Shown: positions 1,464 through 49,636 of the stretch, piece by piece
How positions within the stretch are numbered: the stretch's first letter is position 1
How the letters are laid out: each line of letters starts with the position of its first letter
Source of the DNA: Acidobacteriota bacterium
Lineage (GTDB): Bacteria; Acidobacteriota; UBA890; WLXD01
Reading direction: 5' to 3'
Assembly (NCBI GenBank): GCA_965205505.1
Contig: CBDBHB010000009.1
Location: forward strand, 1,600,001 to 1,664,000
Length of the DNA stretch: 64,000 nt
Program-made: the position numbers and the translations under genes
Notes under the pieces: model-generated
Database searches by the model: none
Told to the model about the DNA's origin: nothing
The model's input: only the letters and a program-made list of their open reading frames with translations

Positions 1464-1667
1464 GATGTTGCCCTCGAGCTGTCGGGAGCGACCGTGACGA
1501 GTGACGAACTCCCGTCACCCTATGCTGTTGACGATGGCGCGGCTTCCCGAAAGTTAACAGAGACCAGTAAATACGGTCTGTTTTCGGGGGTCTATACCCA
1601 CGAAAAGCGACATTTCTGGCCACCAACGCAGCCGCAACGTGCCCACCTGGGGAGTAGGCTCCCGCGC

Positions 1668-1754
1668 ATGAAGCTCACTCCGAGCATCCAGATAGCCCAC
1701 CTCGACGGCATCTGGATCGAGACCTCCTTCAGCCCTATTCACGCCTTCCTCTGA
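1668..1754 (+). repeat. Copy A (5' part) of a dispersed small-ORF repeat family (MKLTPSIQIAHLDGIW...)
   Basis: ATGAAGCTCACTCCGAGCATCCAGATAGCCCACCTCGACGGCATCTGGATC closely matches 47692ff and 45513ff. Confidence 0.85.
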
Positions 1755-3573: not shown

Positions 3574-4836
3574 ATGCCACCGCTGACGGCTCGTCGGGTA
3601 TCGGGCGCCAAGGCCACCAGCAAGGCCTACGCGATCCCCGATGGCACGGTACCCGGCCTTGAGCTTCGGGTTTCGAGGCACGGTGCGAAGACCTTTAGCC
3701 TCCGATACCGGATTGGCGCATATCAGCGCCGACTGACGCTGGGCTCGGCCAGCTTTCTCACCTTGGCCGACGCCCGGGACATGGCGCGAGAGGCACTCCG
3801 GAACCTCAAGAAGCGGGGCATCGATCCGGCAGAGGTGCAACGCGTCGCCCGCAACGCGCTGAGTTTCGCGGGTCTCGCTGAGCTCTACCTCGATCGGCGC
3901 GCCTTAGGCCGTACTGCGGGAGCGCGAGATGCGACGGGTGGCCTTGTCGAAGACGTTTGGGCACTCGCAAGCGCCGAAGGTTCCCCGACCATAAGGGGAT
4001 GGAAAGAGGAGCGGCGCTACCTGGCTAACGAGGCGCTTCCGGCGTGGCGTCATCGGCCGGCCGACTCAATCACGCGCCGCGATGTTCGATCGCTCGTCGA
4101 AGGTGTCGCGGATCGAGGGGCCCCCGTCTCAGCAAACCGTCTGCTTGGCCTGCTGCGCCGCGTCTTCGCTTGGGCCGTTGAGCAGGAGTTACTCCCGGCC
4201 AACCCGGCCGCTGGGATGAAACCGCCGGGCGGCCGAGAGAAGGCTCGCGATCGCGTTCTCAACGACGACGAGATCCGCCAATTTTGGCAGGCGACCGAGG
4301 GCATGGACCTCACGTCGCGCGCGTTCTGGCGACTGCGGCTGATCACCGCCCAGCGCTCCGGCGAGATCGCCACGATGAGTTGGCGCGACATAGACCAGGC
4401 GCGGCGCTGGTGGACGATTCCGGCCGAACGCGCCAAGAACGACTTGGCCCACCGCGTCTCCCTCACCGGGATGGCACTCGATCTGCTGCAGCAACTCCGA
4501 GAGCAAGGCATAGTGAGCGCGACGCTGGTGCTGCCGGAGGTGCGCAACCGTCGCCGTCTTCGCGCATCGGCGAGAGCTTTCGAGGGGATCCCTGACTTTC
4601 GCGGCCACGATCTCCGGCGTACGGCCGCGTCGGGCATGGCGAGCGCGGGGGTTCCCCGCCACCACATCGGGCGCGTTCTCAATCACGCGGAGACGGGAGT
4701 CACAGCGACCTACGACCGTCACATCTACGACCCAGAAAAGCGCCGCGCGCTTGAAGCGTGGGAGGCCGAGCTACGCAAGATTCTTGACGGCCGGCCCTTC
4801 CGGCAGGCTGGCGGGCAGGGGCGCCGGGGCGGATGA
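3574..4836 (+). CDS. int: Tyrosine integrase, P4-like, with N-terminal arm-binding domain
   Basis: PGLELRV...KTF...RRLTLG arm domain; catalytic R (TAQRSGE), K (AKN), HDLRR, LNH and Y are all present. Confidence 0.95.
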   Translation: MPPLTARRVSGAKATSKAYAIPDGTVPGLELRVSRHGAKTFSLRYRIGAYQRRLTLGSASFLTLADARDMAREALRNLKKRGIDPAEVQRVARNALSFAGLAELYLDRRALGRTAGARDATGGLVEDVWALASAEGSPTIRGWKEERRYLANEALPAWRHRPADSITRRDVRSLVEGVADRGAPVSANRLLGLLRRVFAWAVEQELLPANPAAGMKPPGGREKARDRVLNDDEIRQFWQATEGMDLTSRAFWRLRLITAQRSGEIATMSWRDIDQARRWWTIPAERAKNDLAHRVSLTGMALDLLQQLREQGIVSATLVLPEVRNRRRLRASARAFEGIPDFRGHDLRRTAASGMASAGVPRHHIGRVLNHAETGVTATYDRHIYDPEKRRALEAWEAELRKILDGRPFRQAGGQGRRGG

Positions 4837-5777
4837 GGCAGCGTAGCCGCCGCCTCGAGCCGGAGCGCGCCACCCGCACGCGCGCCGAGGTCGCCTTCGC
4901 GAACGCGGTTATAAAAGTCCTTCCGGCTGAAGCATGCAGGGAGCTAGAACCGATTGCCGAAGAGTTCAACGACAAGACACGTGAAACTCTACGACAGCGG
5001 TTCATACCGCGGCTCGAGCGAGCCGGATTCACGGACCTATTTAACCGAGCTGGCGTCACCAAGCAACGCGATATCGAGGCATGGCTCCGCGATGCCGCGC
5101 CGCCCGAGATTCGGCAGGTGGTCGCCGAGTTCAACCGTGCCGCAGCGGAGCGGCAAAGGCAGTACGAGGACCGGATCGGCGACTGGCTGCGAAAGCGGCA
5201 CCTCTACTGCCCAATCATGGAAACCTGGGTGGGCCATTGGATCAACAGTTTCTTGAGGACGGGCCGCCCCCCGGGCTGGAAGGGGCGCGAGCACAGGTGG
5301 GTTAGCTTTCCGGTAGTTTCACAAGAGTGGGATCAGGTGCTCGCCGGGTTTGATGCCTTGAAACCGTTAGGCGCCCCTCGGGTTGGCGATGCTGAATTAG
5401 ACGATGATGCGTTCTTGGCTCCACTATCCTTGAACCCGCTCGGTGAGTCTCCTGACCAAGCGCTGGAGCGGGCTCGTAAACACTACGCGGCCCGGGCAGC
5501 CGCGGCCGAGTCGCGTGGCTATGTCCCGGTGCTCGCCCGGCACCGGCTGGACGACCACGCGCGCTGGCTCGCGCGGCATCAGGTCCTTGGGGAATCGGTC
5601 GAGGAGATCCTCGCACACGAGCCGAGTGTGTCCGACCGTCGGACGATCGAAAAGGCGCTAGAGAACCTGTGTCGTGATTTGAAACTTCGGAAGCGCCCCG
5701 CGAAGCGCGGCCGTCGGCCGGGCGCCAAGAACTCGGCGAGAAGCCGGAGGGTGAGTCGACGGCGCACGGCGAAATAG
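4833..5777 (+). CDS. Hypothetical satellite protein with a basic, possibly HTH-like C-terminus
   Basis: ATGA overlap with int; sits in the position typical of PICI-like regulators. Confidence 0.6.
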   Translation: MRQRSRRLEPERATRTRAEVAFANAVIKVLPAEACRELEPIAEEFNDKTRETLRQRFIPRLERAGFTDLFNRAGVTKQRDIEAWLRDAAPPEIRQVVAEFNRAAAERQRQYEDRIGDWLRKRHLYCPIMETWVGHWINSFLRTGRPPGWKGREHRWVSFPVVSQEWDQVLAGFDALKPLGAPRVGDAELDDDAFLAPLSLNPLGESPDQALERARKHYAARAAAAESRGYVPVLARHRLDDHARWLARHQVLGESVEEILAHEPSVSDRRTIEKALENLCRDLKLRKRPAKRGRRPGAKNSARSRRVSRRRTAK

Positions 5778-5842
5778 GGAATTCGTTTCGGCGTTACGAA
5801 TTCCGCTATATCAATTCGTCCGGGGATGGTCCCCTCCGGTGC

Positions 5843-6085
5843 ATGGATAAGCACCAAGTCACCCGGAAGCCTGATCGGATCATTCCCGAGCCGCAAACGA
5901 GAGAACGTCTCGGCGGCATCTCGCGAACGACGCTCTGGCGCATGACTCGAGCGGGCATTTTCCCGCGCCCTATGCGTATCTCGCCCGGCCGCATCGGCTG
6001 GCGGGAGTCCACCATCGAGGAGTATCTCGAGGCTCGTGAGCGCGAGGCCGCGAGATTTTCCGTTCCCGGCCCGGACGATGGCTGA
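5843..6085 (+). CDS. alpA: AlpA-family excisionase/regulator
   Basis: LGGISRTTLWRMTRAGIFPRPMRISPGRIGWRESTIEEYL is the AlpA signature. Confidence 0.92.
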   Translation: MDKHQVTRKPDRIIPEPQTRERLGGISRTTLWRMTRAGIFPRPMRISPGRIGWRESTIEEYLEAREREAARFSVPGPDDG

Positions 6086-6145
6086 CGCAGGAAACCCCGG
6101 CCACCGGGCAACTAACCGGCACGATTCTGATACTGGATCCGCGCT

Positions 6146-7852
6146 ATGAGCACGCAGGACGGTCCGGCGACTGACGGCGACAACGTCCCGGTCCCGGCAG
6201 AGGAGATCCCGTGGGAGCCCCCTGTCCCATCGGCGCGCGACCGGTCGCTAGAGGCGCGGGCCGCGCGCGCTATCGAAGCTGGCGCCGACGAGTTGGAACC
6301 GGCGACCCCGCACCTGGCCACCGTGCAGGCGTGGATCAGCGCACAGAAGCTAGCGCGGGCGGAGGCAAAGGCCGAAGGTGAGAACCCCCGCGGCGACTTG
6401 AACGAGATCCTCGAGGAGTTGGCGAAGCTCGACGTCGCAGACTACGAGCCACTGCGGTCCGAGCTGAAGCGCCTGTCTGGCTGGCGAACCGCGGTGATCG
6501 ACAGCGAGCGCGCGAAGCGGCGCCGGCAGCGCCCCACGGAAGGCCTCGCCGAGGGCCTGGGCGCCTCGGCGGTCGTCGCGGACGTTGAGCCGTGGGCTGA
6601 TCCGGTGGATGGAGCGGACCTGCTGTCTAGCATAGCCCGGTGCTTTGGCCGGTACGTGGTTCTTCCCGAAGGCGCCGCGACAGCCGCGACCCTTTGGGCG
6701 GTGTTTTCGCACGCCACCGCCTCTTTCGATATCTTCCCGCTCCTCGCGATTTCGAGCGCGGAAATGCGATGCGGCAAGTCAACGCTGCTCACAGTCCTGG
6801 GCCGTCTCGTGCCGCGTGCGATCCCGGCCTCGAACGTGAGCGCCGCCGCGCTTTTTCGCTCCGTCGAGCTGTGGAAACCGACGTTGCTGGTCGACGAGGC
6901 GGACAGCTTTCTGACGGACAACGAGGAGCTTCGCGGCGTCTTGAACTCGGGCCACCATCGTGCAAACGCGTACGTCGTGCGCTGCGATGGCGAGGCTAAC
7001 GAGCCGCGCTGCTTTTGCACATGGGCGCCCAAGGTCGTGGCGTTGATCGGCCGCCTGCCGGCCACGCTGGCAGATCGTTCCGTCAGAATCCGCATGCGGC
7101 GGAAGGCGCCTACAGAAGAAGTCGAGCGCGTGCGCCTAGACCGGTTCGATGTCGAAGAGCTGTGTCGCAAGGCGGCGCGCTGGGCCGCCGACAACGCCGC
7201 CGAGCTTCGGGCCGCGGACCCCGAGTTGCCGGAGAGCCTTGACGACCGGGCCTCCGACAACTGGCGGCCGCTGGTCGCGATTGCCGACCGCGCTGGCGGG
7301 AGGTGGCCGGAGCGTGCCCGCAAGGCGGCCGGGTTGCTTGCGGGCAATGGGGACGACGACAGCGCCTCCGTCGGCGTCATGCTCTTGGCCGATCTCAGGG
7401 AGCTGTTCGCGGAGCGCGGGGTCGACCGGCTCCGGTCATCCGAGATCGTTGAAGCGCTCGTCGAGCGGGAGGAACGGCCGTGGCCGGAGTTCCGCCATGG
7501 CAAGCCAATAACGGTTCGGCAGGTCGCATGGCTGCTACAGGCATTCGAAATCCGGCCGCAACAGCTCCGCGTCGGCGCCGGCAAGTTCCGGGGCTACCGG
7601 AAGAGCGACCTCGTGGAGACATGGAAGCGCTACCTCCCAGAAGGCCCCCCTATTTCATCCGGTACACCGGTACAAGGCCCGCCGGACGGGGCTTTTCCTG
7701 TACCGGATCACCCGGACGGATCCGGGACTGTACCGGATCGTGTACCGGATGAGAAGACCCAGAAACGCCTGCCCCGCAAGGGTTGTACCGGTGTACCGGA
7801 TGGATCCCCCCCTCCCCGGCGCGCAATACACTGCCGGGCGCCACGGAGCTAG
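6146..7852 (+). CDS. DUF3631 replication/helicase-associated protein (P-loop)
   Basis: VEPWADPVDG, CGKST Walker A, LLVDEAD Walker B, DRASDNWRPL, WPEFRHGKPIT and RGYRK motifs. Confidence 0.88.
   Translation: MSTQDGPATDGDNVPVPAEEIPWEPPVPSARDRSLEARAARAIEAGADELEPATPHLATVQAWISAQKLARAEAKAEGENPRGDLNEILEELAKLDVADYEPLRSELKRLSGWRTAVIDSERAKRRRQRPTEGLAEGLGASAVVADVEPWADPVDGADLLSSIARCFGRYVVLPEGAATAATLWAVFSHATASFDIFPLLAISSAEMRCGKSTLLTVLGRLVPRAIPASNVSAAALFRSVELWKPTLLVDEADSFLTDNEELRGVLNSGHHRANAYVVRCDGEANEPRCFCTWAPKVVALIGRLPATLADRSVRIRMRRKAPTEEVERVRLDRFDVEELCRKAARWAADNAAELRAADPELPESLDDRASDNWRPLVAIADRAGGRWPERARKAAGLLAGNGDDDSASVGVMLLADLRELFAERGVDRLRSSEIVEALVEREERPWPEFRHGKPITVRQVAWLLQAFEIRPQQLRVGAGKFRGYRKSDLVETWKRYLPEGPPISSGTPVQGPPDGAFPVPDHPDGSGTVPDRVPDEKTQKRLPRKGCTGVPDGSPPPRRAIHCRAPRS
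7657..7801. repeat. Iteron-like TGTACCGG repeats bounded by a perfect 19-bp inverted repeat (putative origin)
   Basis: ATCCGGTACACCGGTACAA (7657-7675) is the reverse complement of 7783-7801; TGTACCGGAT also at 7699, 7729 and 7741. Confidence 0.75.
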
Positions 7853-7898
7853 ACCGCAGCGACGACGACCAGCCACTCGGATGGGTAGAGGTTCTAAC

Positions 7899-8216
7899 GT
7901 GAGCGACCGCGCCATCGGTGTAAGCCTGCTGCGAGAGGCCCGCGACGCCGGCCTGATCGTTGCCCTCGATGGCGACACGGTTCGCCTGCGAGCTTCGGCC
8001 GAGCCACCCCAGGTGCTCGTTCAATCGCTCCGGCGCCACAAGGACGCGCTTGTGCGGGCACTCCGCAGCGAACACTGCGGCATCGGCGCCGCGCGACCGC
8101 CCGAGAGAACCTGCCACTCCTGCGGAGGCGGCCTCCAGCCGGACGACGATGACTTGTCTTTGTGTTCGGCGTGCCGATGGTACGCGGACCGCTTTGCCCC
8201 AAGGCGGATGCAATGA
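7899..8216 (+). CDS. Small satellite protein (TubC-N-like fold plus CxxC...CxxC zinc finger)
   Basis: GTG start with GAGG RBS; LLREARDAGLIVALDGDTVRLRA...LRRHKDALVRAL followed by CHSC and CSAC. Confidence 0.6.
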   Translation: MSDRAIGVSLLREARDAGLIVALDGDTVRLRASAEPPQVLVQSLRRHKDALVRALRSEHCGIGAARPPERTCHSCGGGLQPDDDDLSLCSACRWYADRFAPRRMQ

Positions 8217-8340
8217 AAAGCCGCCTTGCGTCCCGCCAAGGCCGATCTGCCCGTGGTGCGGGGACAACTGCGCCGCGTGTCGCGTCAGCCCCAGAACGCC
8301 CTGCGACAAGCCCGCCCGACAGGCCCCCCCGGGGGGCTGT

Positions 8341-8400
8341 AGGTTCTTCCGGGGCTTTCCGTCAACGGGTGTGTTCGGCGCAGAATAACGTAAGTTTTTT
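8341..8400 (+). other. Putative cos-like packaging site
   Basis: AGGTTCTTCCGG...ACGGGT...GTTTTTT immediately upstream of the terS-like gene; resembles the lambda cosQ/cosN layout. Confidence 0.4.
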
Positions 8401-8423
8401 GTACGGCTCTAAGGGGTTATGGG

Positions 8424-9590
8424 TTGTCTAAAGGTCAAGCACGCACGGCGTGGGTCGGCCGCAACAGCAAAGGACCCTCGGAGGCGTTCGAAGGGCTCGC
8501 CGATGGTTGCTCGATCCACGGCCTCTCTGACGGGACGTGGTCGCTGATCGACGGGATTGAATACCTGCTCGACCGGTGCGGACCGAGCGATGTCACGGTC
8601 TCGACCTGGACCGCGGCGAACGCGGATATCGAGCGGGCGGAGAGACTCCTGCAGGACGGGCGAATCAAGACGCTCCGGCTACTCGTTGACCGGTCGTTCG
8701 AGGGTAGGCAGCCCCGCTACTGTGGCCGCGCGCGGCACCTATTCGGCGATCAAGCGCTCCGGGTGTGGAACTCGCACGCGAAGTTCGCGCTCGTCCTGGG
8801 TGGGAAGCTCGACGTGCTGTACACCACGTCGGCGAACCTGAACGCCAACAAGCGCCTCGAGAACTTCACGCTATTCGCCGGTGGCGACCTGCCCGGGGAA
8901 TACCTCGCGGCGGTGGAAGAGCTGTGGAAACTCCAAAAGCCGGGCGAAGCCTTCGAGGGTGGGTCGTTCCTTGGGCGTGCTCATACCGAAGAGATTCTCG
9001 GGGTCGAAAAGCTACTCGGGCGTGCGGAACTGTCGGCCGCTTTAGGCCGGAGCGCGAAGGGGATTGCGAAGCTGGTAGACGCTGGGATGCCGGTGGCGAG
9101 GCGCGGTTCGAGTGGCCGGCCGCATGGCTACAGGCTCGAGGATGTCGAGGTGTGGATGGCGTCGCGCGACGAGACGCGCCAGCCGGGCGAGTTTCTCGAC
9201 GCGGTGCGCGAACGGGCGCTCAAGGAGCGGGCGCAGAGGCATCTTGCCGAGCAAACGCTCGAGGTGCGGGCCGGGGAGCTCGTGGCGGAGGACGAAGTGA
9301 TAGCGGAGTGGAGCGGGCATGCGGCCGCGGTGCAGACGAAGCTCGTGGCGATCTCCGCCGCGCTGCCGCGGACCGGGGCCACGGGGAGCACGTGCTTCGT
9401 AGACGAAGGCCAGTGCGTCGCGTTGCCGACCCCGCGGTGTTTGATCCGATGTCACGCCGCCCAGCCGACGGACAGCACCACCGCTTGCTGGAGCACGGCC
9501 TGCGCCGCCCTTTCCTGTTTGTCGGGCGGAGCCATTGAGACCGCACAGGTGATCGCGGAGCTGATCCAGTTGACCCCCGGAGATGCGTGA
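8424..9590 (+). CDS. PLD-superfamily nuclease domain fused to a Nu1-like terminase small subunit; C-terminus corrupted after ~9370
   Basis: N-terminal STWT, LLVDRS, HAKF and SANLN motifs; then [11 protein letters not shown]...AGMPV...YRLEDVEVW wHTH, a coiled coil and GELV. Last residues read into an hsdR remnant. Confidence 0.75.
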
Positions 9591-43247: not shown

Positions 43248-43439
43248 CTAGCCCAGTCGCAGGCGCATTAGCGACACGTCGTCGTCGAAGGTGCCGCCAG
43301 CGTACTCACGCAGTCGCCCGATGGCGGTATCGAGATCGTCGCCGTCCGCTGTTGTGATGATCTCGGCGAAGCCGTCGTATCCGAGCATGTGCTCGGCGTC
43401 TTCATCGCCAGGCGGGAAGATCTCGTAAACGCCATCGTC
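43248..43439 (-). pseudogene. PP2C/SpoIIE (RsbU-like) phosphatase C-terminal fragment
   Basis: Manual translation DGVYEI...MLGYDGF...FDDDVSLMRL*; an in-frame stop lies just upstream. Confidence 0.6.
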
Positions 43440-43554
43440 TTATTGGGCCTTTCTAACCCCATCCGCGAGCAGGTTATGGTCGACGTTCTTCGAGAGCGTC
43501 GCCGCCGTCGCGGAGTGATCGTCCACCAGTTCACCAGCGACGCGCCGCCGGATT

Positions 43555-45280
43555 CTAGTCAAAACGCAGAGCTAGAACGGGGCGCAACTCGTCGATGCTG
43601 CCGGGGCGTTGGCTGGGATCCTTCTCCAGCATGGCGGTCACGGCGGACTGTAGTTTGTCCGGCACTTCTTCCAATGGCAGCACCAAGGCAGCTGCGGACT
43701 CATTGAGGATCGCGCTAGCCGTGTCCATGAAGGTGGCTCGTTTGAACGGGTGGGCACCTGTCAGCATCTCTTGCAACAGCAACGCCGAAGGAGAAGATGT
43801 CGGATCGGGTGTCGACCTTCGATCCCCGTAGCTGTTCCGGTGACATGTAGGCCGGCGTTCCGATGACTGTTCCCGACTGAGTCAGCTTCGTCATCAAGTT
43901 CTGGGGCTCGCTTGCGTCGACGCGCTTGGCGATCCCGAAGTCCATGACCTTGACGTGGCCGTGGGCCGTGAGCTGGATATTCGCTGGCTTCAGGTCGCGG
44001 TGTACTAGGTCATGCCGGTGCGCTAACTGCAGCGCCTCGGCGATCTCGCCAGCGACCGCGAGCCCGCGTTTCAGCGACAAAGGGCCGTTTGCCAGCTCCG
44101 CCTCGAGCGAGGTTCCCTCGATGTACTCCATGGCGATGAAGGGCCAGTCGCCAGCCTCACCAATCTCGTAGATCTTGCAAATGAACGGATGGTCCAGCGC
44201 CGCCGCTAACCGTGCTTCGCGGAAGAGCCTTTGCTGTGCGATCGGATCTCGTCGGAGGTCGTCGGGCAGGAGCTTGAGGGCGACCTTCCGCTCCAGGGCA
44301 GTGTCGTGCGCCAACAGCACCTGACCCATACCTCCCTCACCGATCTTCTCGAGGACCTCGTACTTGCCAATCGCGCCGCTCGCCATTGGGCGATTGTCTA
44401 GGGCCGTCTGTAGTCGTGCGACGATCGGTGTCTCCTCGGTTGGTATGCCGAGGAACGATCGCATTTCATCGAGGAAGGTCTTCCAGCCGGGCTCGTCTTC
44501 CAGCAGCAGATGGTTCCTGCTGCGGATAGGTACGAAGCGCGCACCCGGCACCCGCGTGGCGATGTTGCGACCCAGTTTGAAGGGCACCACGGCGTCTTCG
44601 TCACAGTGCATCACAAGGGTGGGGACCCGGATTTGCGCCAGGCGGCCGCTGATATCCGCTTGTGCAAAGTTCTCGAGAAAGCGTGCCGCGTTATCGGACG
44701 AGGCTGATAGCCGCTGCAGCTCGTCGAACCAATCCATCTGTGCAGCTGTACCGTCAGGAATGAAGCGTTGGGTCCAAATCTGCCGATAGGCGGGGTTGTC
44801 CCTACCCCAGCCGTGTCTAGTCAGCGTTACCATCGCGTTCCAAGCCTCGATCTGTTCGGCGGAGGCGCCCGATCTGGCGATCCCCTGAGCGTAGGTTCCG
44901 AACACCACGAGGTGCGTCACGCGCTCGGGATAGCGGAAGGCGTACTCGATCGCCAGCTGACCACCCTGGGAGACGCCCAGGATCGAAAATCGATCGAGAC
45001 CCGCGGCGTCGATAATCGTCTCCAGATCCTGGAAACAGGCTTCGAACGAAACGTCGTCAACGTCCCAGTCCGATAGTCCCAGCCCCCGCTGGTCGTAACG
45101 GATCAGCGTGTGGTTGAGCGAGAGCGCCTCTGCCCAATGCCGCCAGATCGGGGTGCTCCACTCGAATTCGAGATGGCTCATCCAGTTGGCGGCCTTGACA
45201 AGCGGTGGGCCGCTCCCGCTAGTGGCATACGCGATCCGGACCCCGTCGGGAGTTTTGCAAAAGCGAGTCTGCTGTTGCAC
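43555..45280 (-). CDS. Alpha/beta hydrolase - Ser/Thr kinase fusion with one frameshift near 43782
   Basis: DGVRIAYA, RYDQRG and GVSQG hydrolase motifs; GEGGMG, VALK, HRDLKPAN, DFG and YMSPE kinase motifs. The kinase end continues in the 43555-43782 frame. Confidence 0.85.
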
Positions 45281-45512
45281 GGGGGTCGCTCCTGGCCGGG
45301 CTGGTGGCTCGCAGTCTGGGGAACGCTAGCAGTGAGGAGGGGCGATCCACCACCGGATATGCTTGAGAAAATCGGTTCTGGGTGAGTTCGTTCAGTGCCT
45401 CGCCAATGTTAGGCACTGGTCGATGCCGGGATCCGGACCGTCGCCGCACCGTCGTAGTGCCTCGGCGGTGCGTTGGCGCGGAGAGCATCTCAGCGATCAA
45501 GGCGCGTCCTAC

Positions 45513-45560
45513 ATGAAGCTCACCCCCAGACCCAGAGAGTCCACCTGGACGGCATCTGGC
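45513..45560 (+). repeat. Copy B (5' part) of the small-ORF repeat family
   Basis: ATGAAGCTCACCCCCAGACCCAGAGAGTCCACCTGGACGGCATCTGG, with a 1-nt deletion relative to copies A and D. Confidence 0.82.
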
Positions 45561-45775
45561 TTGTCGGAAAAGCCAATGTGGGCGTTGTTGAGGAACGCGA
45601 TGCGTGGTCCGATCGCGAACAATGTGCTGATGAGCGCGCGCCCGCTCAGGTTCCTTGACCGAGAAACCGACACTATGGGGTGAGCATGTCTCGAAGAGAC
45701 GAACGAGAACAAGGGAGCATCAGCCGCAGCATTGCGCGGACCGGGATATCTGAGAGCGGCGACGCTGCGGCCCAG

Positions 45776-46573
45776 ATGTCCGAAAGCGACAAGGGGCAAA
45801 TCAGCGCCAGTGCCGCTGAGGTGTACGAGGAGTTCTTCGTTCCGGCGCTCTTTGCCGAGTGGCCACCAATTCTTGCGAGCGCAGTCGGGATCAGGCCGTC
45901 GCACCGCGTTGTCGACGTTGCCTGCGGCACCGGTGTCCTGGCGCGCGCCGTCGCTGAACTTCTGAGCGATGGATCGGTAGTCGGCGTCGACATCAATGAA
46001 GGGATGCTCGATGTAGTGCGACGACGGTCACCGCAGATCGAGTGGCGTTGTGGCCCGGCTGAGGCGCTGCCGCTGGCCGATGAGAGCTTTGACGTCGCTG
46101 TCTGCCAGTTCGGCTTGATGTTCTTCGAGGATCAGCGTGCTGCGATCCAAGAGATGGTCCGGGTACTGCGCTCGGGCGGCAGGCTTGCTGTCGCCGTCTG
46201 GGATTCGCTCGAGAACGTGCCCGGCTATGCCACGATGGTCGAATTGCTCCAGCGGCTGCTTGGTGACCAGGCCGCCAATGCGTTCCGAGCGCCCTTCCTG
46301 CTGGGCGAGGTGGATACTCTCCGCAGCTTGTTCCAAACGGCCGGCATAGCCGATGTCGAGATCAGTACACATGAAGGCACGGCGCGGTTCCCGTCGATCG
46401 AGTCCTGGATCCACACCGACGTCAAGGGGTGGACGCTGGCAGACATGATCGACGACGACCAGTACGACCGACTGCTCGCGGAAGCAAAACCGGTTCTCGA
46501 ACGCTACGTTGTCGCTGATGGCACGATCGCCTTCAAGGCGTCCGGGCACATCGCCAGCGCAACGAAAGCGTGA
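45776..46573 (+). CDS. UbiE-like SAM-dependent methyltransferase
   Basis: YEEFFVP, VVDVACGTG, VGVDINEGML and CQFGLMFF motifs. Confidence 0.92.
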   Translation: MSESDKGQISASAAEVYEEFFVPALFAEWPPILASAVGIRPSHRVVDVACGTGVLARAVAELLSDGSVVGVDINEGMLDVVRRRSPQIEWRCGPAEALPLADESFDVAVCQFGLMFFEDQRAAIQEMVRVLRSGGRLAVAVWDSLENVPGYATMVELLQRLLGDQAANAFRAPFLLGEVDTLRSLFQTAGIADVEISTHEGTARFPSIESWIHTDVKGWTLADMIDDDQYDRLLAEAKPVLERYVVADGTIAFKASGHIASATKA

Positions 46574-46632
46574 TCGCGCGAGCTTCGACGACCGACTCCA
46601 TCAATCGAGATCGCCGACGATCAGCCTCAACT

Positions 46633-46765
46633 CTGCGATACGGCAACATCCGCACGCTGCAGGATCTGACGCTGGTGAACCTGGCCAGGATTCGAGAGTC
46701 GCAGCTAGCGTTGCTCCTGGAGGCTGCAGGCACCGCAAGAGTGCAGGCGCGGGAGGTGCAGGCCA
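46633..46765 (+). repeat. Copy C (3' part) of the small-ORF repeat family
   Basis: GNIRTLQDLTLVNLA...QLALLLEAAG...VQAREV; GCAACATCCGCACGCTGCAGGA matches copy D. Confidence 0.82.
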
Positions 46766-47044
46766 CTAGTGCTCCTGATCATAAGTACGGTGACGTTTGC
46801 AGGAGCGAGATGCGGGCGAGATCAAGGAAGGGTGAGGAAGGCGATGCCTTAGCCATCCTCGACGAGCCCTGACGCCGAGATCGCCCGCATCTCGCTCCTG
46901 CCCTCCGGGTGGCCGCGGGACCGGCCACCTTGGGCGTCGCGGTGCCTCGACGATACACCCAGCATCGCCCTCGTCGCCGCTCCTACAATTCGCCCCGGTC
47001 GCGCGCGCCACAAACGTCACCGTACTTATGATCAGGAGCACTAG
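46766..47044. mobile_element. MITE (279 bp) with CTAG at both ends and perfect terminal inverted repeats
   Basis: 35-bp perfect IR at 46765-46799 / 47011-47045; internal perfect 21-bp IR at 46799-46819 / 46881-46901; no transposase. Confidence 0.88.
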
Positions 47045-47067
47045 TAGCTCGTCTCGTAGCGAATGGA

Positions 47068-47538
47068 CTACGAGGCCGGTCGGGTCAATGCCCAAAGCGG
47101 TAGAAGACCGAGACAGCCGAAGGTTGCAAGCCTCGTCAACGCGATCTTCTGCCAGGTCGTCCCCCGATCCAAGAGCGCCGCGTCGATCGTCTCCGAATAG
47201 GGTGACGATACGAGCGCCGTGTACCCGGGAAAGATGTAGGCGAGCGAGACGATTGAGATCGCGATCGATCCGACTAGGGCGGAGAGCAGAAGCGTGCGCC
47301 GTGTACTGCGCCAATTTGCCGCGAGCGCTGCAACCAGGAACACGATAGCGAGCGTGTTAGTGATCCGCCAGAACGGTGCCGGATTGTAGACGTACTCGCC
47401 CTGGTACATCGCAAGAGAGGCCGGCGGCGCGGACAGAGCGACGGGGGTGATGGACGCCTGGCTGTAGGCATCGGCGCCGACGAGCAGGTAGTGAGTGACA
47501 ATCGCGCCTATCAGCAGAACGTCTCGGACCCTATCCAT
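47068..47538 (-). CDS. Membrane protein, DUF1772-like
   Basis: About 4 TMs; SAPPASLAMYQG...PFWR motif. Confidence 0.7.
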   Translation of the reverse strand: MDRVRDVLLIGAIVTHYLLVGADAYSQASITPVALSAPPASLAMYQGEYVYNPAPFWRITNTLAIVFLVAALAANWRSTRRTLLLSALVGSIAISIVSLAYIFPGYTALVSSPYSETIDAALLDRGTTWQKIALTRLATFGCLGLLPLWALTRPAS

Positions 47539-47691
47539 GCGGGAATCCCTCTTGTTGCCGCCATCGCCTCGACTTGGGGAAGCCTTCTCCTAGAAGTATT
47601 CGGTTGCACTTCCCGTCCGGGCATAGTTCATGAATCTCGCAGCCAATGCAAAGGGCGGCCGTCGGTCTGTCCATGAGCTACCCTCCGGTGC

Positions 47692-47897
47692 TTGAAGCTC
47701 ACCCCCAGCACCCAGATAGCCCACCTCGACGGCATCTGGATCACGACCTCCTTGGCCCTGCTGCAATGCAACATACGCACGCTGCAGGACCTTTCGCTGG
47801 TGAGCCTGGCAACCACACCGACAGAGATCGACGAGCAGTAGTTGGCGATTCTGCGGAGGCCGGCGAGGTGGCCGGAGTGCAGCATCGGGAGGTGTAG
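47692..47897 (+). pseudogene. Copy D (full length, internal stop plus frameshift) of the small HhH-like ORF family
   Basis: LKLTPSTQIAHLDGIWITTSLALLQCNIRTLQDLSLVSLATTPTEIDEQ*LAIL / EAGEVAGVQHREV*. Confidence 0.75.
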
Positions 47898-47899
47898 AG

Positions 47900-48331
47900 A
47901 TGACTCAAGTGCATGTGGTTCTACCAGAAGACGACGCAACGACGATCTACGGCGCCGGTGATGAGTATCGGTTCCTGATCACAGGCGACCAGTCGAGCGG
48001 CCGGTACTTCGCCATGGAGGCGTTTGTACCACCGGGAGCTGGACCACCGCCTCACATCCAGAATCGGGAAGAAGAGGCCTTCTACGTGCTATCCGGCGAG
48101 GTGGTTTTCTACGCGAATGGTCAGCGTATCTCCGGAAAAGCAGGGACGTTTCTTCACGTACCGCGCGGAGTACCACACCGTTTCAAGAACGAATCGACTG
48201 CCGATTCGAGGCTCTTGATATGGTTCGGACCAGCGGGGATAGAGGCGATGATGGAGCGCATGGCGGCAGACCCAGACAACTATGTTGCGATTGGCGCCGA
48301 GCATGGGGTTGAGTTCGTCGACGAGGCTTGA
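47900..48331 (+). CDS. Cupin-domain protein (quercetinase-like)
   Basis: GPPPHIQNREEEAFYVLSG and PRGVPHRFKN motifs. Confidence 0.9.
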   Translation: MTQVHVVLPEDDATTIYGAGDEYRFLITGDQSSGRYFAMEAFVPPGAGPPPHIQNREEEAFYVLSGEVVFYANGQRISGKAGTFLHVPRGVPHRFKNESTADSRLLIWFGPAGIEAMMERMAADPDNYVAIGAEHGVEFVDEA

Positions 48332-48345
48332 CGACCTCGCCCCAA

Positions 48346-48432
48346 ACCCCGTCGAAGATCCCAGAGCAGCAGCTGGCGATTCTGCTGGAGGCTGCTGAGG
48401 TGGAGCCGCGGGAGCTGCAGCTCAGGTACTAG
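48346..48432 (+). repeat. Copy E (3' part) of the small-ORF repeat family
   Basis: TPSKIPEQQLAILLEAAEV...RELQ; GAGCAGCAGCTGGCGATTCTGC matches copy D GAGCAGTAGTTGGCGATTCTGC. Confidence 0.78.
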
Positions 48433-48626
48433 TGTCCTGAGTCAGGAATCCGTTGCATATTGCTGCCCCTATATCGTCCCAGCCTTCCGGGTGGCGGCGG
48501 GACCGGCCGCCTCCGGCGTCGGCGCTCCTCGACGATGCTCATTGCATCGCTGTCGTCGCGCCTCCTGGGATCCGGCTTGGTCGCGCTCGCCACAATATGC
48601 AACGGATCCCTGAATCAGGACACTAG
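48429..48626. mobile_element. MITE (198 bp) with CTAG ends, related to the 46766 element
   Basis: 34-bp IR with 2 mismatches (48429-48462 / 48593-48626); interior CCGGGTGG..GCGGGACCGGCC...CCTCGACGAT...GCATCGC..TCGTCGC shared with the first MITE. Confidence 0.88.
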
Positions 48627-48700
48627 CCGGCCTTGCGTCGGTCCTCTGGCTCCGCGTCCTCGAAGTCGGTCGCGGTCGTTTGCCGGAGTCTCAGCGGCGA

Positions 48701-49636
48701 TCACCCTGAGGCTCCTGGCGTCTGCGCTGCCAGCTTGCGGAAGTAGAGCGCCAGTCCTCTCCACGAATCGCCGGCCCCGCCTTCGTTCAGATACACGTCG
48801 ACGTCGCCCGCCAGGGTCGCCTCGAGGTCAACTCGCACGCGCCGGCAAAACCGTTCCACGTGCCCCTCGTCGTCATCTGTGTCGCTTTGCAGATCGGCGC
48901 GCACGATCGCCGCCCAGTCGGCCAGCCGCCGCTGGTGTTCGTCAATGTGCGGCGCCACCGGGCGGGCGGGACCGAAATGGGTGAGGCACAGGAGAGTAGG
49001 ATTCCAGGCACGGATCTTGGCAGCGGAGTCCTCCCATCCTGCAAGGTCGACGTCCGCCGGTGGCGTGGCCGGCATGACGTAGGGACGGTTGTCGATACGG
49101 ATGCCGAGCGTGTCGCCAACATAGGCCGCGCCCGTGCTCGGGTCGAAGTAGCCGACGTGATGCTTGGCATGGCCCGGCGTGTGCTCTACGACGATCTCCC
49201 GAGCGCCGATGTGGATGGCTTCGCCACCGTCGAGCGCTTCGACATTGGCCTCTGTAACGCCCACGAACTCGCCCCATAGCTCGTCCATCATGTCTCCGTA
49301 GACGCGCTCGGCGCTGGCCAGCAGCCGTGTAGGGTCGGTCATGTGGGGGGCCCCGCGGCGATGCACGTAGACGCGGATCGACGGGTTGCGAGCCACCAGC
49401 GTGCCGGTGGCTCCGGCATGGTCGAGGTGGATGTGGGTGAGCAGAATGGCGCTGACATTGTCGATCGACAGACCTCCGAGCCGCAGCCCGTCTTCGAGGG
49501 CCGCCAGTGTCGACGTGGGGCCAGGATCCACCAGCGCGACGCCGTCGCCGGTCTCGATGACGTAGCAGCCGAGGTACTCGGGGCTGCCACGAAAGCGCAA
49601 GTCGATCAAATGCGTTCCCGGGGCGATCGGCCTCAC
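48701..49636 (-). CDS. MBL-fold metallo-hydrolase
   Basis: THIHLDHAG, TPGHAKHH, VGD and THFG motifs; GTG start overlaps the upstream stop. Confidence 0.92.
   Translation of the reverse strand: MRPIAPGTHLIDLRFRGSPEYLGCYVIETGDGVALVDPGPTSTLAALEDGLRLGGLSIDNVSAILLTHIHLDHAGATGTLVARNPSIRVYVHRRGAPHMTDPTRLLASAERVYGDMMDELWGEFVGVTEANVEALDGGEAIHIGAREIVVEHTPGHAKHHVGYFDPSTGAAYVGDTLGIRIDNRPYVMPATPPADVDLAGWEDSAAKIRAWNPTLLCLTHFGPARPVAPHIDEHQRRLADWAAIVRADLQSDTDDDEGHVERFCRRVRVDLEATLAGDVDVYLNEGGAGDSWRGLALYFRKLAAQTPGASG

Follow-up and report, generated by a model that had tools for sequence, protein, structure and literature searches.

The window analysed here is a stretch of 64,000 nucleotides from the genome of an Acidobacteriota bacterium (G000), which was compared with four congeners (G001 to G004). 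It contains an array in which small genes are interleaved with copies of a single repeat, named S, and with two MITEs. The order of the array (B, methyltransferase, C, MITE, membrane gene, D, cupin, E, MITE, where B to E are copies of S) and its coordinates had been proposed by a model-made first-pass annotation and were confirmed by the sequence itself, by Pfam and by an nhmmer profile of S.

Anatomy of the array and its chromosomal site

The features that compose the array and its surroundings, together with a distant copy of S, are the following.

1553 to 1736, plus strand: A, upstream arm (about 160 nt) and S nt 1-69, an intergenic remnant
43248 to 43437 (start approximate), minus strand: 3' remnant, about 190 nt, of a GAF-SpoIIE phosphatase gene, collinear with G004 (L026) down to L026 position 6267
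43715 to 45280, minus strand: alpha/beta-hydrolase and Ser/Thr kinase ORF (Pfam), with a kinase domain truncated at position 198 of the 263-position profile
45513 to 45561, plus strand: B, S nt 1-49 (as far as DGIW), 1 nt of which is deleted
45562 to 46621, plus strand: insert in S of about 1.06 kb, a 71-nt piece followed by the methyltransferase gene
45680 to 46573, plus strand: class-I SAM methyltransferase gene (Pfam)
about 46622 to 46766, plus strand: C, 3' part of S starting at nt ~59, lacking 12 nt internally and ending in CTAG
46766 to 47044: MITE1, 279 nt including both CTAGs (271 nt between them), with perfect 35-nt terminal inverted repeats
47068 to 47538, minus strand: membrane protein gene, 156 aa, without a Pfam match
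47566 to 47673: about 100 nt without counterpart in the G004 copy of the membrane-gene module
47676 to 47899, plus strand: D, whole-length S pseudogene with a TTG start, TAG at 47839-47841 and, after it, the loss of 1 nt
47900 to 48331, plus strand: Cupin_2 gene, 143 aa (Pfam), 3 nt past D and about 11 nt ahead of E
about 48343 to 48428, plus strand: E, S from nt ~110 to the 3' end, running into CTAG
48429 to 48616: MITE2, a 180-nt element between two CTAGs
48664 to 48764, minus strand: 5' remnant, about 100 nt, of the GAF-SpoIIE gene

B and C are indeed roughly complementary halves of S, separated by a gap of about 1060 nt. D, which had been described as a full repeat, is whole in length but not intact, since it carries TTG in place of ATG, an in-frame stop and a frameshift; it retains about 15 nt of the upstream arm, and its tail, GGGAGGTG, lies 7 nt ahead of the cupin ATG. 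Similarly, copy A leaves D soon after the DGIW codons, as had been noticed, but S is preserved to about nt 69, some 20 nt beyond them. Copy A is common to G000 and G004 and absent in G002 and G003; its assignment to the island of a P4-type integrase (3574-4836) was discarded, as the two genes in between are conserved on the chromosomes of G002 and G003. The final ~46 nt of C are the same as in the G004 copy when both sequences are read.

The segment carrying the methyltransferase (45581-46560) finds a DNA match of 76% in G001 (C139:3405-4384), and the 71-nt piece that precedes the gene (45560-45630) is 91.5% identical to C8:1063613-1063683. A second short piece, 64 nt long (47595-47658), has a counterpart of 91% identity at the beginning of an amidohydrolase ORF (C9:2792170-2792233). 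The cupin gene has no paralogue in G000 and no DNA match among the matches listed for 40 relatives, while paralogues of the kinase part elsewhere in G000 are weak (63-75%, over 43742-44362). A resemblance of the membrane protein to the Anthrone_oxy family is a weak lead.

The whole array is contained in a lineage-specific patch of 5.2 kb (43438-48663, with edges at 43437/43438 and 48663/48664), which replaced the middle of the GAF-SpoIIE gene and left remnants of it at both edges; the corresponding gene of G004 (L026:5116-6456) has both GAF and SpoIIE domains. The POT-transporter and MBL-fold genes that flank the site are collinear in all four congeners, and the interval between them measures 25 bp, 1.05 kb and, in both G002 and G003, 2.9 kb, against 5.2 kb in G000. 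As regards contents, the 25-bp interval holds no gene, another holds GAF-SpoIIE, and that of G003 holds DUF885 and GAF-SpoIIE. Gene content between fixed flanks is not invariant: it differs in all four relatives, at the level of species, and the site is a variable hot spot between conserved genes. The patch as a whole is nevertheless lineage-specific, and a single form of it is present in the contigs of four sequencing runs.

The two MITEs constitute a separate layer. MITE1 is bounded by CTAGs at 46766-46769 and 47041-47044, and its empty site is found uninterrupted in G004, where it reads GGCCAGTAGTAGCTCG. For MITE2, whose CTAGs lie at 48429-48432 and 48613-48616, no empty site was found. The two elements resemble each other in their cores, at 76% over 131 nt, and differ at their ends. 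MITE1 is present in G000 at 26 near-full-length loci, at least six of them at 96-99% identity, and MITE2 at three full-length loci in addition to 73 partial matches; paralogue depth over the two elements reaches 106 and 78. Inverted repeats, CTAG duplication, the empty site of MITE1, many copies and the lack of a transposase identify both as MITEs. In particular, perfect terminal inverted repeats, CTAG ends, a relative's empty site and tens of copies recall MITEs derived from the IS5 superfamily, a likeness that covers the two caps only and not the interleaving of S with genes. Both elements are later CTAG-targeted insertions, independent of that interleaving. C and E, the two 3' parts of S, do run straight into a MITE CTAG, because the CTAG target adjoins the S 3' end.

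The repeat S and the small integrative elements of sister genomes

S is a protein-coding orphan gene of 68 aa, preceded by an upstream arm of about 170 nt. Eight S proteins of 66-80 aa share 73-85% identity, and differences among six copies are distributed over codon positions 1:2:3 as 162:110:299; S is a real gene family. Its spread is narrow, with only 12 representatives in 1.84 billion library proteins and occurrence in 6 of 41 related genomes (2 of 27 genera), among which it is confined to this genus and, as fragments, to one sister genus. Intact copies are found in three sister species, and none of the 12 copies in G000 is intact. A profile built on intact copies gives 15 nucleotide matches in G000 with nhmmer, and more in four sister genomes and the sister genus, so that the repeat extends well beyond the five local copies. 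The pieces in the window match this profile with E values of 5e-9 to 3e-59 and are not due to chance; moreover, the similarity among B, C, D and E is only 81-91% across stretches of 43-48 nt, which excludes a recent local duplication.

No match for S was obtained in Pfam, PHROGs or PDB sequences; Rfam returned two sub-threshold chance matches in 44500-49500 and none in the intact S unit, hence the repeat is no known RNA. AlphaFold2, run on eight sequences, predicts two helices with a mean pLDDT of 66.6, too weak for the model to be used in a fold search. The ESM Atlas offers leads below 0.9 to the helix-hairpin-helix families HHH_5 and DUF4332, a resemblance that may serve as a lead, and an RpoA-CTD-like pattern is an impression from the sequence. 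A likeness to the C-terminal motif of tyrosine recombinases was dropped, the BLASTP alignment being not significant (E 0.25). In the intact S unit, the promoter scan found no promoter-like site, and the terminator scan found one terminator-like hairpin on the opposite strand. Viral contigs yielded 51 pattern matches, none encoding S, and metagenomes only six further loci; no integrase lies downstream of the only intact metagenome copy with 6 kb of flank.

The sister genomes place S in insertions of defined structure. In G004 (C10), a 1.8-kb segment at the start of an SRAP gene is flanked by the 19-nt repeat (G/A)TGTGCGGACGCTTCACGC and consists, in order, of arm, S, a collagen-like ORF and a C-terminal integrase fragment whose stop lies inside the repeat; the empty site is present in G003. 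A second insertion in G004 (C15), of 1756 bp with an 11-bp duplication, contains an excisionase-like ORF (HTH_17) and, at one end, an S unit with a deletion; its empty site is present in G000. In all four presence/absence comparisons the insertion edge coincides with the outer end of the arm. Moreover, at three loci in three species a tyrosine recombinase gene, or a fragment of one, follows downstream of S in the same orientation. Specifically, these are a 160-aa C-terminal fragment (L028), a fusion of S(1-37) with an integrase C-half (L051) and a full integrase of 415 aa with an S 5' piece 540 nt upstream of it (L055); none of them belongs to the window array. As the three are only 28-30% identical to one another, a single family of S-integrase elements is not established. 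A variant of the S unit with a 100-nt deletion recurs at three G004 loci and two metagenome loci, indicating that the unit has been copied.

S with its arm is best explained as the integrase-distal end of small integrative elements in sister genomes. Flanking direct repeats, with an empty site in a relative, are found for S-bearing segments of those genomes and are missing in the window, where the 18-nt core of the G004 element has no match at up to three mismatches; an intact arm-S-integrase element was found in none of the genomes or contigs searched. The junctions of S-bearing insertions are heterogeneous, and include, besides the 19-bp and 11-bp direct repeats, target deletions of 61 bp and about 1.05 kb and a replacement of 47 nt.

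Single-gene modules and breakpoints within S

Complete single genes bounded by pieces of S units are found at five places in G000, and four of these genes are co-oriented with S. Three are the methyltransferase, membrane and cupin genes of the window. The fourth, an ORF of 160 aa, belongs to a 2.4-kb insertion that interrupts a radical-SAM gene, and the fifth is RtcB, located between arm and S with flanks of 91 and 46 nt. In the radical-SAM insert, an S 3' piece from residue 20 is followed, around one gene, by an S 5' piece to about residue 24, which is the order expected from a circle opened inside S. The methyltransferase interrupts S and RtcB parts the arm from S in G000, whereas the respective copies in G004 are uninterrupted and contiguous.

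The membrane-gene module occupies non-homologous sites in two species. Its copy in G004 (C15:1216090-1216616) is 98.5% identical over 527 nt, with 8 mismatches, against 89-96.5% for flanking orthologous DNA of the two genomes. The tract of high identity ends inside S on the right, past S nt 48, and at about S nt 150 on the left, as judged from reading both sequences. Breakpoints, in turn, are not scattered: 11 of 23 S fragment ends fall in one 27-nt stretch, S nt 52-78 (scan-statistic P about 0.003), a figure to be read knowing that nhmmer alignment ends are imprecise and that some events may not be independent. The positions themselves span about 20 nt (49, 58-60, 69-70), with no shared cut point or partner motif.

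Features of integrons are lacking at the locus, as had been reported. Pfam detected no recombinase domain in any ORF between 43.4 and 50 kb, and the only TIGR02249 match above cut-off in G000 (C8:1214363-1215181) lies on another contig, where it has attC-like repeats and shares no sequence with the array. The attC consensus is RYYYAAC...GTTRRRY; between 43400 and 48700 it has no candidate on either strand, shuffled sequences giving a mean of 0.43. As single-stranded DNA, intact S has no fold excess over shuffles (z 0.18), and the value for D is -1.94.

Origin of the array

The observation that genes and S pieces alternate is therefore confirmed, and its reading as gene capture is supported in part: bounded modules recur and breaks cluster, but dedicated capture machinery was not found. 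The alternative offered at the time, the remains of a small mobile unit, is the closest match to the picture in sister genomes. Accordingly, the explanation to which we give about an even chance is that the array represents a fossilized patch of mobile DNA within a plasticity hot spot, derived from S-bearing integrative elements by accretion and recombination. S and its ~170-nt arm would be the integrase-distal end module of an element family, several units of which, each with one accessory gene, would have been gathered side by side, with S copies acting as shared homology and preferred junctions. The middle of the GAF-SpoIIE gene would have been lost during this assembly; the S copies would then have decayed, the methyltransferase segment landing inside one of them, and the two MITEs would have inserted at the CTAGs ending two S copies. 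The anatomy, the coding character of S, the hot spot, the MITE insertion, the S units within repeat-flanked elements of sister genomes, the relocation of the membrane-gene module and the breakpoint cluster are shown by the sequences. That the window array originated from such elements, and that it was assembled by recombination at S, either homologous or recombinase-assisted, is what we infer.

Several facts weigh against accretion as the preferred explanation. The window array has no upstream arm, apart from the vestige in D, no integrase and no att-like repeat, and simple tandem accretion would leave arm and core between modules, where both are missing. Target deletions (61 bp; 47 nt replaced) fit illegitimate recombination better than integrase action, and the clustering of breaks inside S is unexplained by accretion alone. 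Two further mechanisms were considered: rolling-circle, one-ended transposition was set aside given the clean 11-bp duplication and 19-nt repeat at two insertions, and homology-facilitated illegitimate recombination anchored on S was rejected, as the empty sites of relatives have no S anchor.

A different possibility, which we regard as doubtful, is that S is the docking site of a gene-capture system analogous to integrons, where circular one-gene modules are inserted or exchanged by a recombinase encoded elsewhere, for example the tyrosine recombinase of an S element, cutting S at about nt 50-75, close to its 3' end and where the arm meets the ATG. The breakpoint cluster, the order of S pieces in the radical-SAM insert and the relocation of the membrane module with S pieces at both ends would all be accounted for, as would the five one-gene modules with short flanks (3 and ~11 nt for the cupin, 91 and 46 nt for RtcB); moreover, two or three lineage-specific insertions fell in S units, which together account for just about 0.1% of the genome. 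Nevertheless, the breaks are spread over about 20 nt and may be partly imprecise or dependent, neither a hairpin nor an attC-like signal is present, no recombinase is co-localised in G000, whose sole integron integrase is on another contig, and every S copy in this genome is dead. The contigs of the four runs display a single arrangement, although contigs cannot reveal rare excised forms. The version in which such capture is specific to the genus, with S-element tyrosine recombinases acting in trans at S nt ~50-75 and at the borders to insert, excise and shuffle circular one-gene modules and the window preserving a dead array, appears similarly improbable; it would amount to an integron-like platform recombining at a coding gene in place of a folded attC. 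No more probable is that S is passive and the patch is ordinary junk that illegitimate recombination and deletion have left at a permissive site. Other debris in the patch (the truncated kinase gene, the 71-nt and 64-nt distant pieces, the disrupted host gene) would agree with it, together with target deletions at junctions and an S-free mosaic in G004 (C7:34-54 kb) composed of pieces from more than 10 G000 loci. In addition, seven S copies drag along a 3'-end fragment of a neighbouring PD40-kinase-family gene, which indicates imprecise segmental copying. Against a passive S stand the clustering of breaks, the nature of the five modules as whole single genes rather than fragments, the clean 19-bp and 11-bp repeats that flank segments with S units and the high-identity tract of the membrane module that stops inside S on either side. 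Finally, an artefact of a mis-assembled or chimeric metagenome bin could be suspected at a locus so rich in repeats (MITEs and S), in a genome that looks metagenome-assembled and whose nearest public relatives are labelled MAGs. This is very improbable, as independent contigs of four runs from four studies give one fixed structure and bridge every junction outside MITE interiors with 0-9 differences (one of 2955 nt spans 43834-46788, others 47018-47741 and 47713-48456), and the same S-membrane-S module exists in G004. Where joints bypass parts of the array, their support is 20-33 nt long and lies inside MITE or S repeats; no inference is drawn from them.

Among known systems, tandem accretion and decay of integrative elements leave integrase-less, att-flanked remnants (CIME-like). 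The S segments of sister genomes, with direct repeats and integrase remnants or an excisionase-like gene, resemble these, and accretion followed by deletion leaves element ends in arrays, with cargo in between; in contrast, the window lacks att repeat, arm and integrase, the elements are very small (~1.8 kb), and breaks inside the end gene S are not predicted. With integron arrays the locus shares small, mostly co-oriented single genes parted by copies of one sequence, content that differs among relatives and some modules that are bare ORFs; it differs in having no adjacent IntI and no attC pattern or fold excess, and in a repeat that encodes a protein instead of forming an imperfect inverted repeat, with copies truncated rather than regenerated. 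Rhs/CDI toxin genes carry orphan modules downstream. There, too, small genes are interspersed with fragments of a single repeated gene, and homologous recombination could mediate swapping, but S encodes 68 aa without toxin or immunity features, and the cargo consists of a methyltransferase, a cupin and a membrane protein. In the minimal mobile elements of Neisseria, as described in two reports, variable genes between conserved flanks are swapped by homologous recombination (PMC1797815, PMC3787668). The POT/MBL flanks with different content in each relative and the high-identity tract of the membrane module, which stops inside repeated sequence, are comparable; here, however, the bounding homology is an internal multicopy gene instead of flanking genes, and the module was relocated to a site without homology.

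If S is no more than a marker of decayed elements, the locus would be of value for annotation and hold little surprise: a clear case of accessory genes piling up and rotting in plasticity zones of uncultured Acidobacteriota from soil and sediment, as well as of CTAG-seeking MITEs homing to gene ends. To our knowledge, how single complete genes are packaged for capture by integrons is still unexplained. If capture at S were true, a recombinase acting on coding sequence would represent a second, independent route to arrays of one-gene cassettes, and would provide a handle on that packaging. Either way, S and its arm are a sequence tag for mobile accessory DNA in this genus.

Anatomy of the array and of its site

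The array is built around a repeat, S, a 68-aa orphan gene that forms, together with a stretch of about 170 nt (the arm) common to several S copies upstream of the gene, what we call the S unit. A reading of the sequence at 45280-48760, combined with the ORF list and Pfam, bore out the order of pieces claimed by the first-pass annotation.

Features of the array in the window
45513-45561: B, S nt 1-49, with a 1-nt deletion
45680-46573: class-I SAM methyltransferase (ORF list and Pfam)
~46622-46766: C, 3′ part of S from near nt 59 onward
46766-47044: MITE1
47068-47538, minus strand: membrane ORF, 156 aa
47676-47899: D, whole-length S
47900-48331: Cupin_2 gene (Pfam)
~48343-48428: E, S from about nt 110
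48429-48616: MITE2

B, C, D and E were all recovered by a nucleotide profile made from intact sister-genome copies (E 5e-9 to 3e-59), and the same profile placed S at 15 positions in this genome in all. D, previously described as the full repeat, has indeed the whole length but is dead, with a TTG start, an in-frame TAG and then a 1-nt deletion. Copy A (1553-1736), described as diverging from D shortly after the DGIW codons, retains S to about nt 69, and the upstream arm is present too. The similarity among B, C, D and E is no more than 81-91% over 43-48 nt, so that they are not the product of a fresh local duplication, the alternative considered for the repeat copies. In comparison with G004, one of four congeners (sister species G001-G004), this genome has about 100 additional nt at 47566-47673, inside which a 64-nt piece (47595-47658) shows 91% identity to C9:2792170-2792233, the start of an amidohydrolase ORF. 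That gene lies beside an S 3′ fragment at locus L005 (5293-6611; C9:2792.3-2793.6 kb) and shows 95% identity to its counterparts in G002, G003 and G004, its flanks being about 80% identical to G002 and G003. At 47880-47902, the S 3′ tail (GGGAGGTG) stands 7 nt upstream of the cupin ATG, in ribosome-binding-site position, and the S 3′ end might be predicted to serve downstream genes as such a site.

The patch that holds the array (43438-48663) is delimited by a POT-family transporter gene (up to 43437) and an MBL-fold gene (from 48664), which are collinear in all four congeners. The content between these fixed flanks varies among the relatives: the interval measures 25 bp in G001, contains a GAF-SpoIIE gene of 1.05 kb in G004 and DUF885 plus GAF-SpoIIE (2.9 kb) in G003, equals the latter in G002 (2.9 kb, compared by size only), and reaches 5.2 kb here. 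Of the GAF-SpoIIE gene, some 190 nt from the 3′ end and 100 nt from the 5′ end persist at the patch edges, and therefore about 1.05 kb of that gene was replaced by the patch. The patch also carries, at 43715-45280 on the minus strand, an alpha/beta-hydrolase fused to a Ser/Thr kinase domain that covers its profile only to position 198 of 263; the gene is either truncated or an unusual fusion. Contigs of four runs from four studies span all junctions that lie outside the MITE interiors, with 0-9 differences, which contradicts an assembly artefact and makes that explanation scarcely credible; the array structure is real and fixed in the populations of the four runs, contigs being blind to rare variants. 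Elsewhere in the window, positions 3574-9590 form a separate genomic island, with a P4-type tyrosine integrase (Arm-DNA-bind_3, Phage_int_M, Phage_integrase) followed by an ORF without assignment and a DUF3631 protein, and an inverted repeat pair of 40 nt at 7656-7802 contains repeated CCGGTACA words.

The repeat as a gene and its breakpoints

The translation of D retrieved eight proteins of 66-80 aa with 73-85% identity. Differences among six S copies from three sister species are distributed over codon positions 1:2:3 as 162:110:299, as expected when coding sequence is moderately constrained. No relatives were found in Pfam, PHROGs or PDB, and an exhaustive search of 1.84 billion representatives with an S profile returned only 12 matches, many of them fragments. 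S is present in six of 41 related genomes, belonging to two of 27 genera. Whole copies exist in G004 (three), and whole or nearly whole ones in G001 and G002, while none of the 12 protein-level matches in this genome is a stop-free, full-span S. In five copies, the arm contains two GGTAY words whose starts are spaced 10 nt apart (sequence reading), and seven S copies are trailed by a short 3′-end piece of a gene that, from the reading of its C-terminal peptide, would belong to a PD40-kinase family. In the sister genus (G007), three unit copies of about 230 nt (L057, L058 and L059) stop at S nt 69-70; a palindromic segment of about 31-39 nt, occurring in both orientations, follows them and may constitute, at the point where S breaks off, a hairpin of REP-like or invertible type.

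Internal fragment ends of S amounted to 23 when orthologous duplicates were left out, namely L042 (orthologous to A), L058 (the same sequence as L057) and further deletion-variant copies. The possibility raised earlier that breakpoints are scattered was not borne out: 11 of these ends fall in S nt 52-78, a concentration reached by a 27-nt window with a frequency of 0.003 in 20,000 random placements, a statistic that assumes independent events and uses imprecise profile alignment ends. At the nucleotide level, 5′ fragments exit S at nt 49, 58, 59-60, 60, 69, 69-70, 70 and 70. In other words, the break positions form a zone with two sub-clusters and no single cut point.

One-gene modules, integrons and MITE caps

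S pieces bound five one-gene modules in this genome, three in the window and two elsewhere; each gene is complete, and in four modules it has the same orientation as S. Outside the window, a radical-SAM gene carries a 2.4-kb insertion, absent from all four congeners (61 bp there), in which a complete ORF of 160 aa is preceded by a 3′ piece of S (residue 20 onward) and followed by a 5′ piece of S (up to about residue 24); at the SRAP locus, an RtcB gene lies between arm and S, which are contiguous in G004. A second copy of the membrane module, with the structure S(6-67)-gene-S(1-21), lies in G004 at a site non-homologous to that of the window, with 8 of 527 positions differing between the two genomes, while orthologous flanks are 89-96.5% identical. 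Its high-identity tract ends on the right after S nt 48 and starts on the left at about S nt 150 (left limit by sequence reading), and the left S is interrupted by the methyltransferase in this genome only. In G001, a 264-nt radical-SAM piece (positions 1296-1559 of L048, contig C3), whose neighbours are an intact S unit and a fragment of the PD40-kinase family, is 98.5% identical to C8:850019-850282 of this genome, the orthologous copy being about 80% identical; this points to S-adjacent DNA having been transferred recently between species.

As the first-pass annotation had stated, a local recombinase is lacking (no recombinase domain by Pfam in 43.4-50 kb) and so are attC sites, with no attC-type box pair in 43400-48700 against a shuffle mean of 0.43. 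Moreover, intact S folds as single-stranded DNA no better than shuffles (z 0.18). The only integron-integrase match of the genome above the curated cut-off lies on another contig, at C8:1214363-1215181 on the minus strand (TIGR02249 of NCBIfam, 350 versus a cut-off of 265 bits; a frame of 286 aa, profile 42-315). Six or seven box pairs resembling attC, together with short shared repeats, stand on its 3′ side, and the region C8:1206890-1215181 is likely to be a chromosomal integron whose integrase has an unusual orientation. Since this probable integron shows no match to the window array, which has no recombinase, attC box pair or fold excess of its own, the array is neither an integron nor an integron outpost. 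It works somewhat like integron arrays, whose defining tests it nevertheless fails, like accreted integrative elements and like Neisseria minimal mobile elements.

The terminal inverted repeats of MITE1 are perfect over 35 nt and CTAG lies on each side of the element, whose family counts 26 near-full-length loci in this genome, six of them at 96-99% identity; MITE2 shares with MITE1 a 131-nt core (76% identity), the ends being different. The claim that the 3′ S copies run into a MITE CTAG was correct for both C and E, and in one further S copy the stop codon is part of a CTAG. Because the S-membrane junction of G004 is an empty site without MITE1, reading GGCCAGTAGTAGCTCG, and CTAG terminates C and E, the caps are a later and independent layer, drawn by a target adjoining the S 3′ end.

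Integrative elements and the origin of the array

Outside the window, in sister genomes, S units are parts of small integrative elements. Specifically, a 1.8-kb segment of G004:C10, ordered as arm, S, collagen-like ORF and integrase C-terminal fragment, lies between copies of a 19-nt repeat, (G/A)TGTGCGGACGCTTCACGC, which is the start of the SRAP gene and occurs singly in G003, the empty site; the integrase stop codon falls within the repeat. In G004:C15, a 1756-bp insertion flanked by an 11-bp duplication, at a site empty in this genome, carries an excisionase-like ORF (HTH_17) and, at one end, an S unit with a deletion. The insertion edge coincides with the outer end of the arm in four of four presence/absence comparisons, and a tyrosine recombinase gene or fragment stands downstream of S, co-oriented, at three loci in three species, with about 0.3-0.5 expected by chance (a rough, informal estimate from integrase densities). 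A 100-nt deletion variant recurs at three G004 and two metagenome loci, and the S unit has therefore been copied. Identity among the three S-adjacent integrases, one of them the 415-aa gene of L055, is only 28-30%, an intact arm-S-integrase element was not found in related genomes or metagenome contigs, and two other S-bearing insertions show target deletions in place of duplications, all of which speaks against a single element family.

We favour, with about even confidence, the view that the array consists of S-bearing end modules of small integrative elements that accumulated, recombined at S and decayed. The S gene with its arm would be the end module of such elements; S-bearing units with single-gene cargo would have piled up at this hot spot, recombining with one another at their S copies; the host gene would have been lost in part; the S copies would have decayed, the methyltransferase segment inserting into one of them; and MITE insertion would have come last. 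What concerns the sister genomes is shown there, whereas its application to the window array is an inference, since arm, core (the 19-nt/18-nt att-like repeat of the G004:C10 element) and integrase are all absent here.

The gene-capture mechanism proposed at first, recombining at a site inside S, agrees with the clustering of breakpoints, the complete one-gene modules and the 3′-gene-5′ order of S pieces, but the breaks are spread, neither a recombinase nor a structured site accompanies them, and the array is fixed and dead, so that such a system appears unlikely. Equally doubtful is that S is mere debris in a junkyard patch: the clustered breakpoints and the clean flanking repeats oppose this, even though the patch contains other fragments and S-free mosaics exist, for instance at G004:C7:34-54 kb. 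This locus (L067, G004:C7:34000-53999) is a 20-kb mosaic that lacks S; its pieces match more than 10 separate loci here and are separated by MITEs and IS copies, and extreme patchwork regions seem to be common in the genus.

A non-exhaustive literature search, by words and not by sequence, gave no account of an acidobacterial repeat of the S type, and no named relative of S was found in the libraries searched. While the general kind is already known, what we rate as new is a genus-specific end module of integrative elements that recurrently bounds one-gene cargo.
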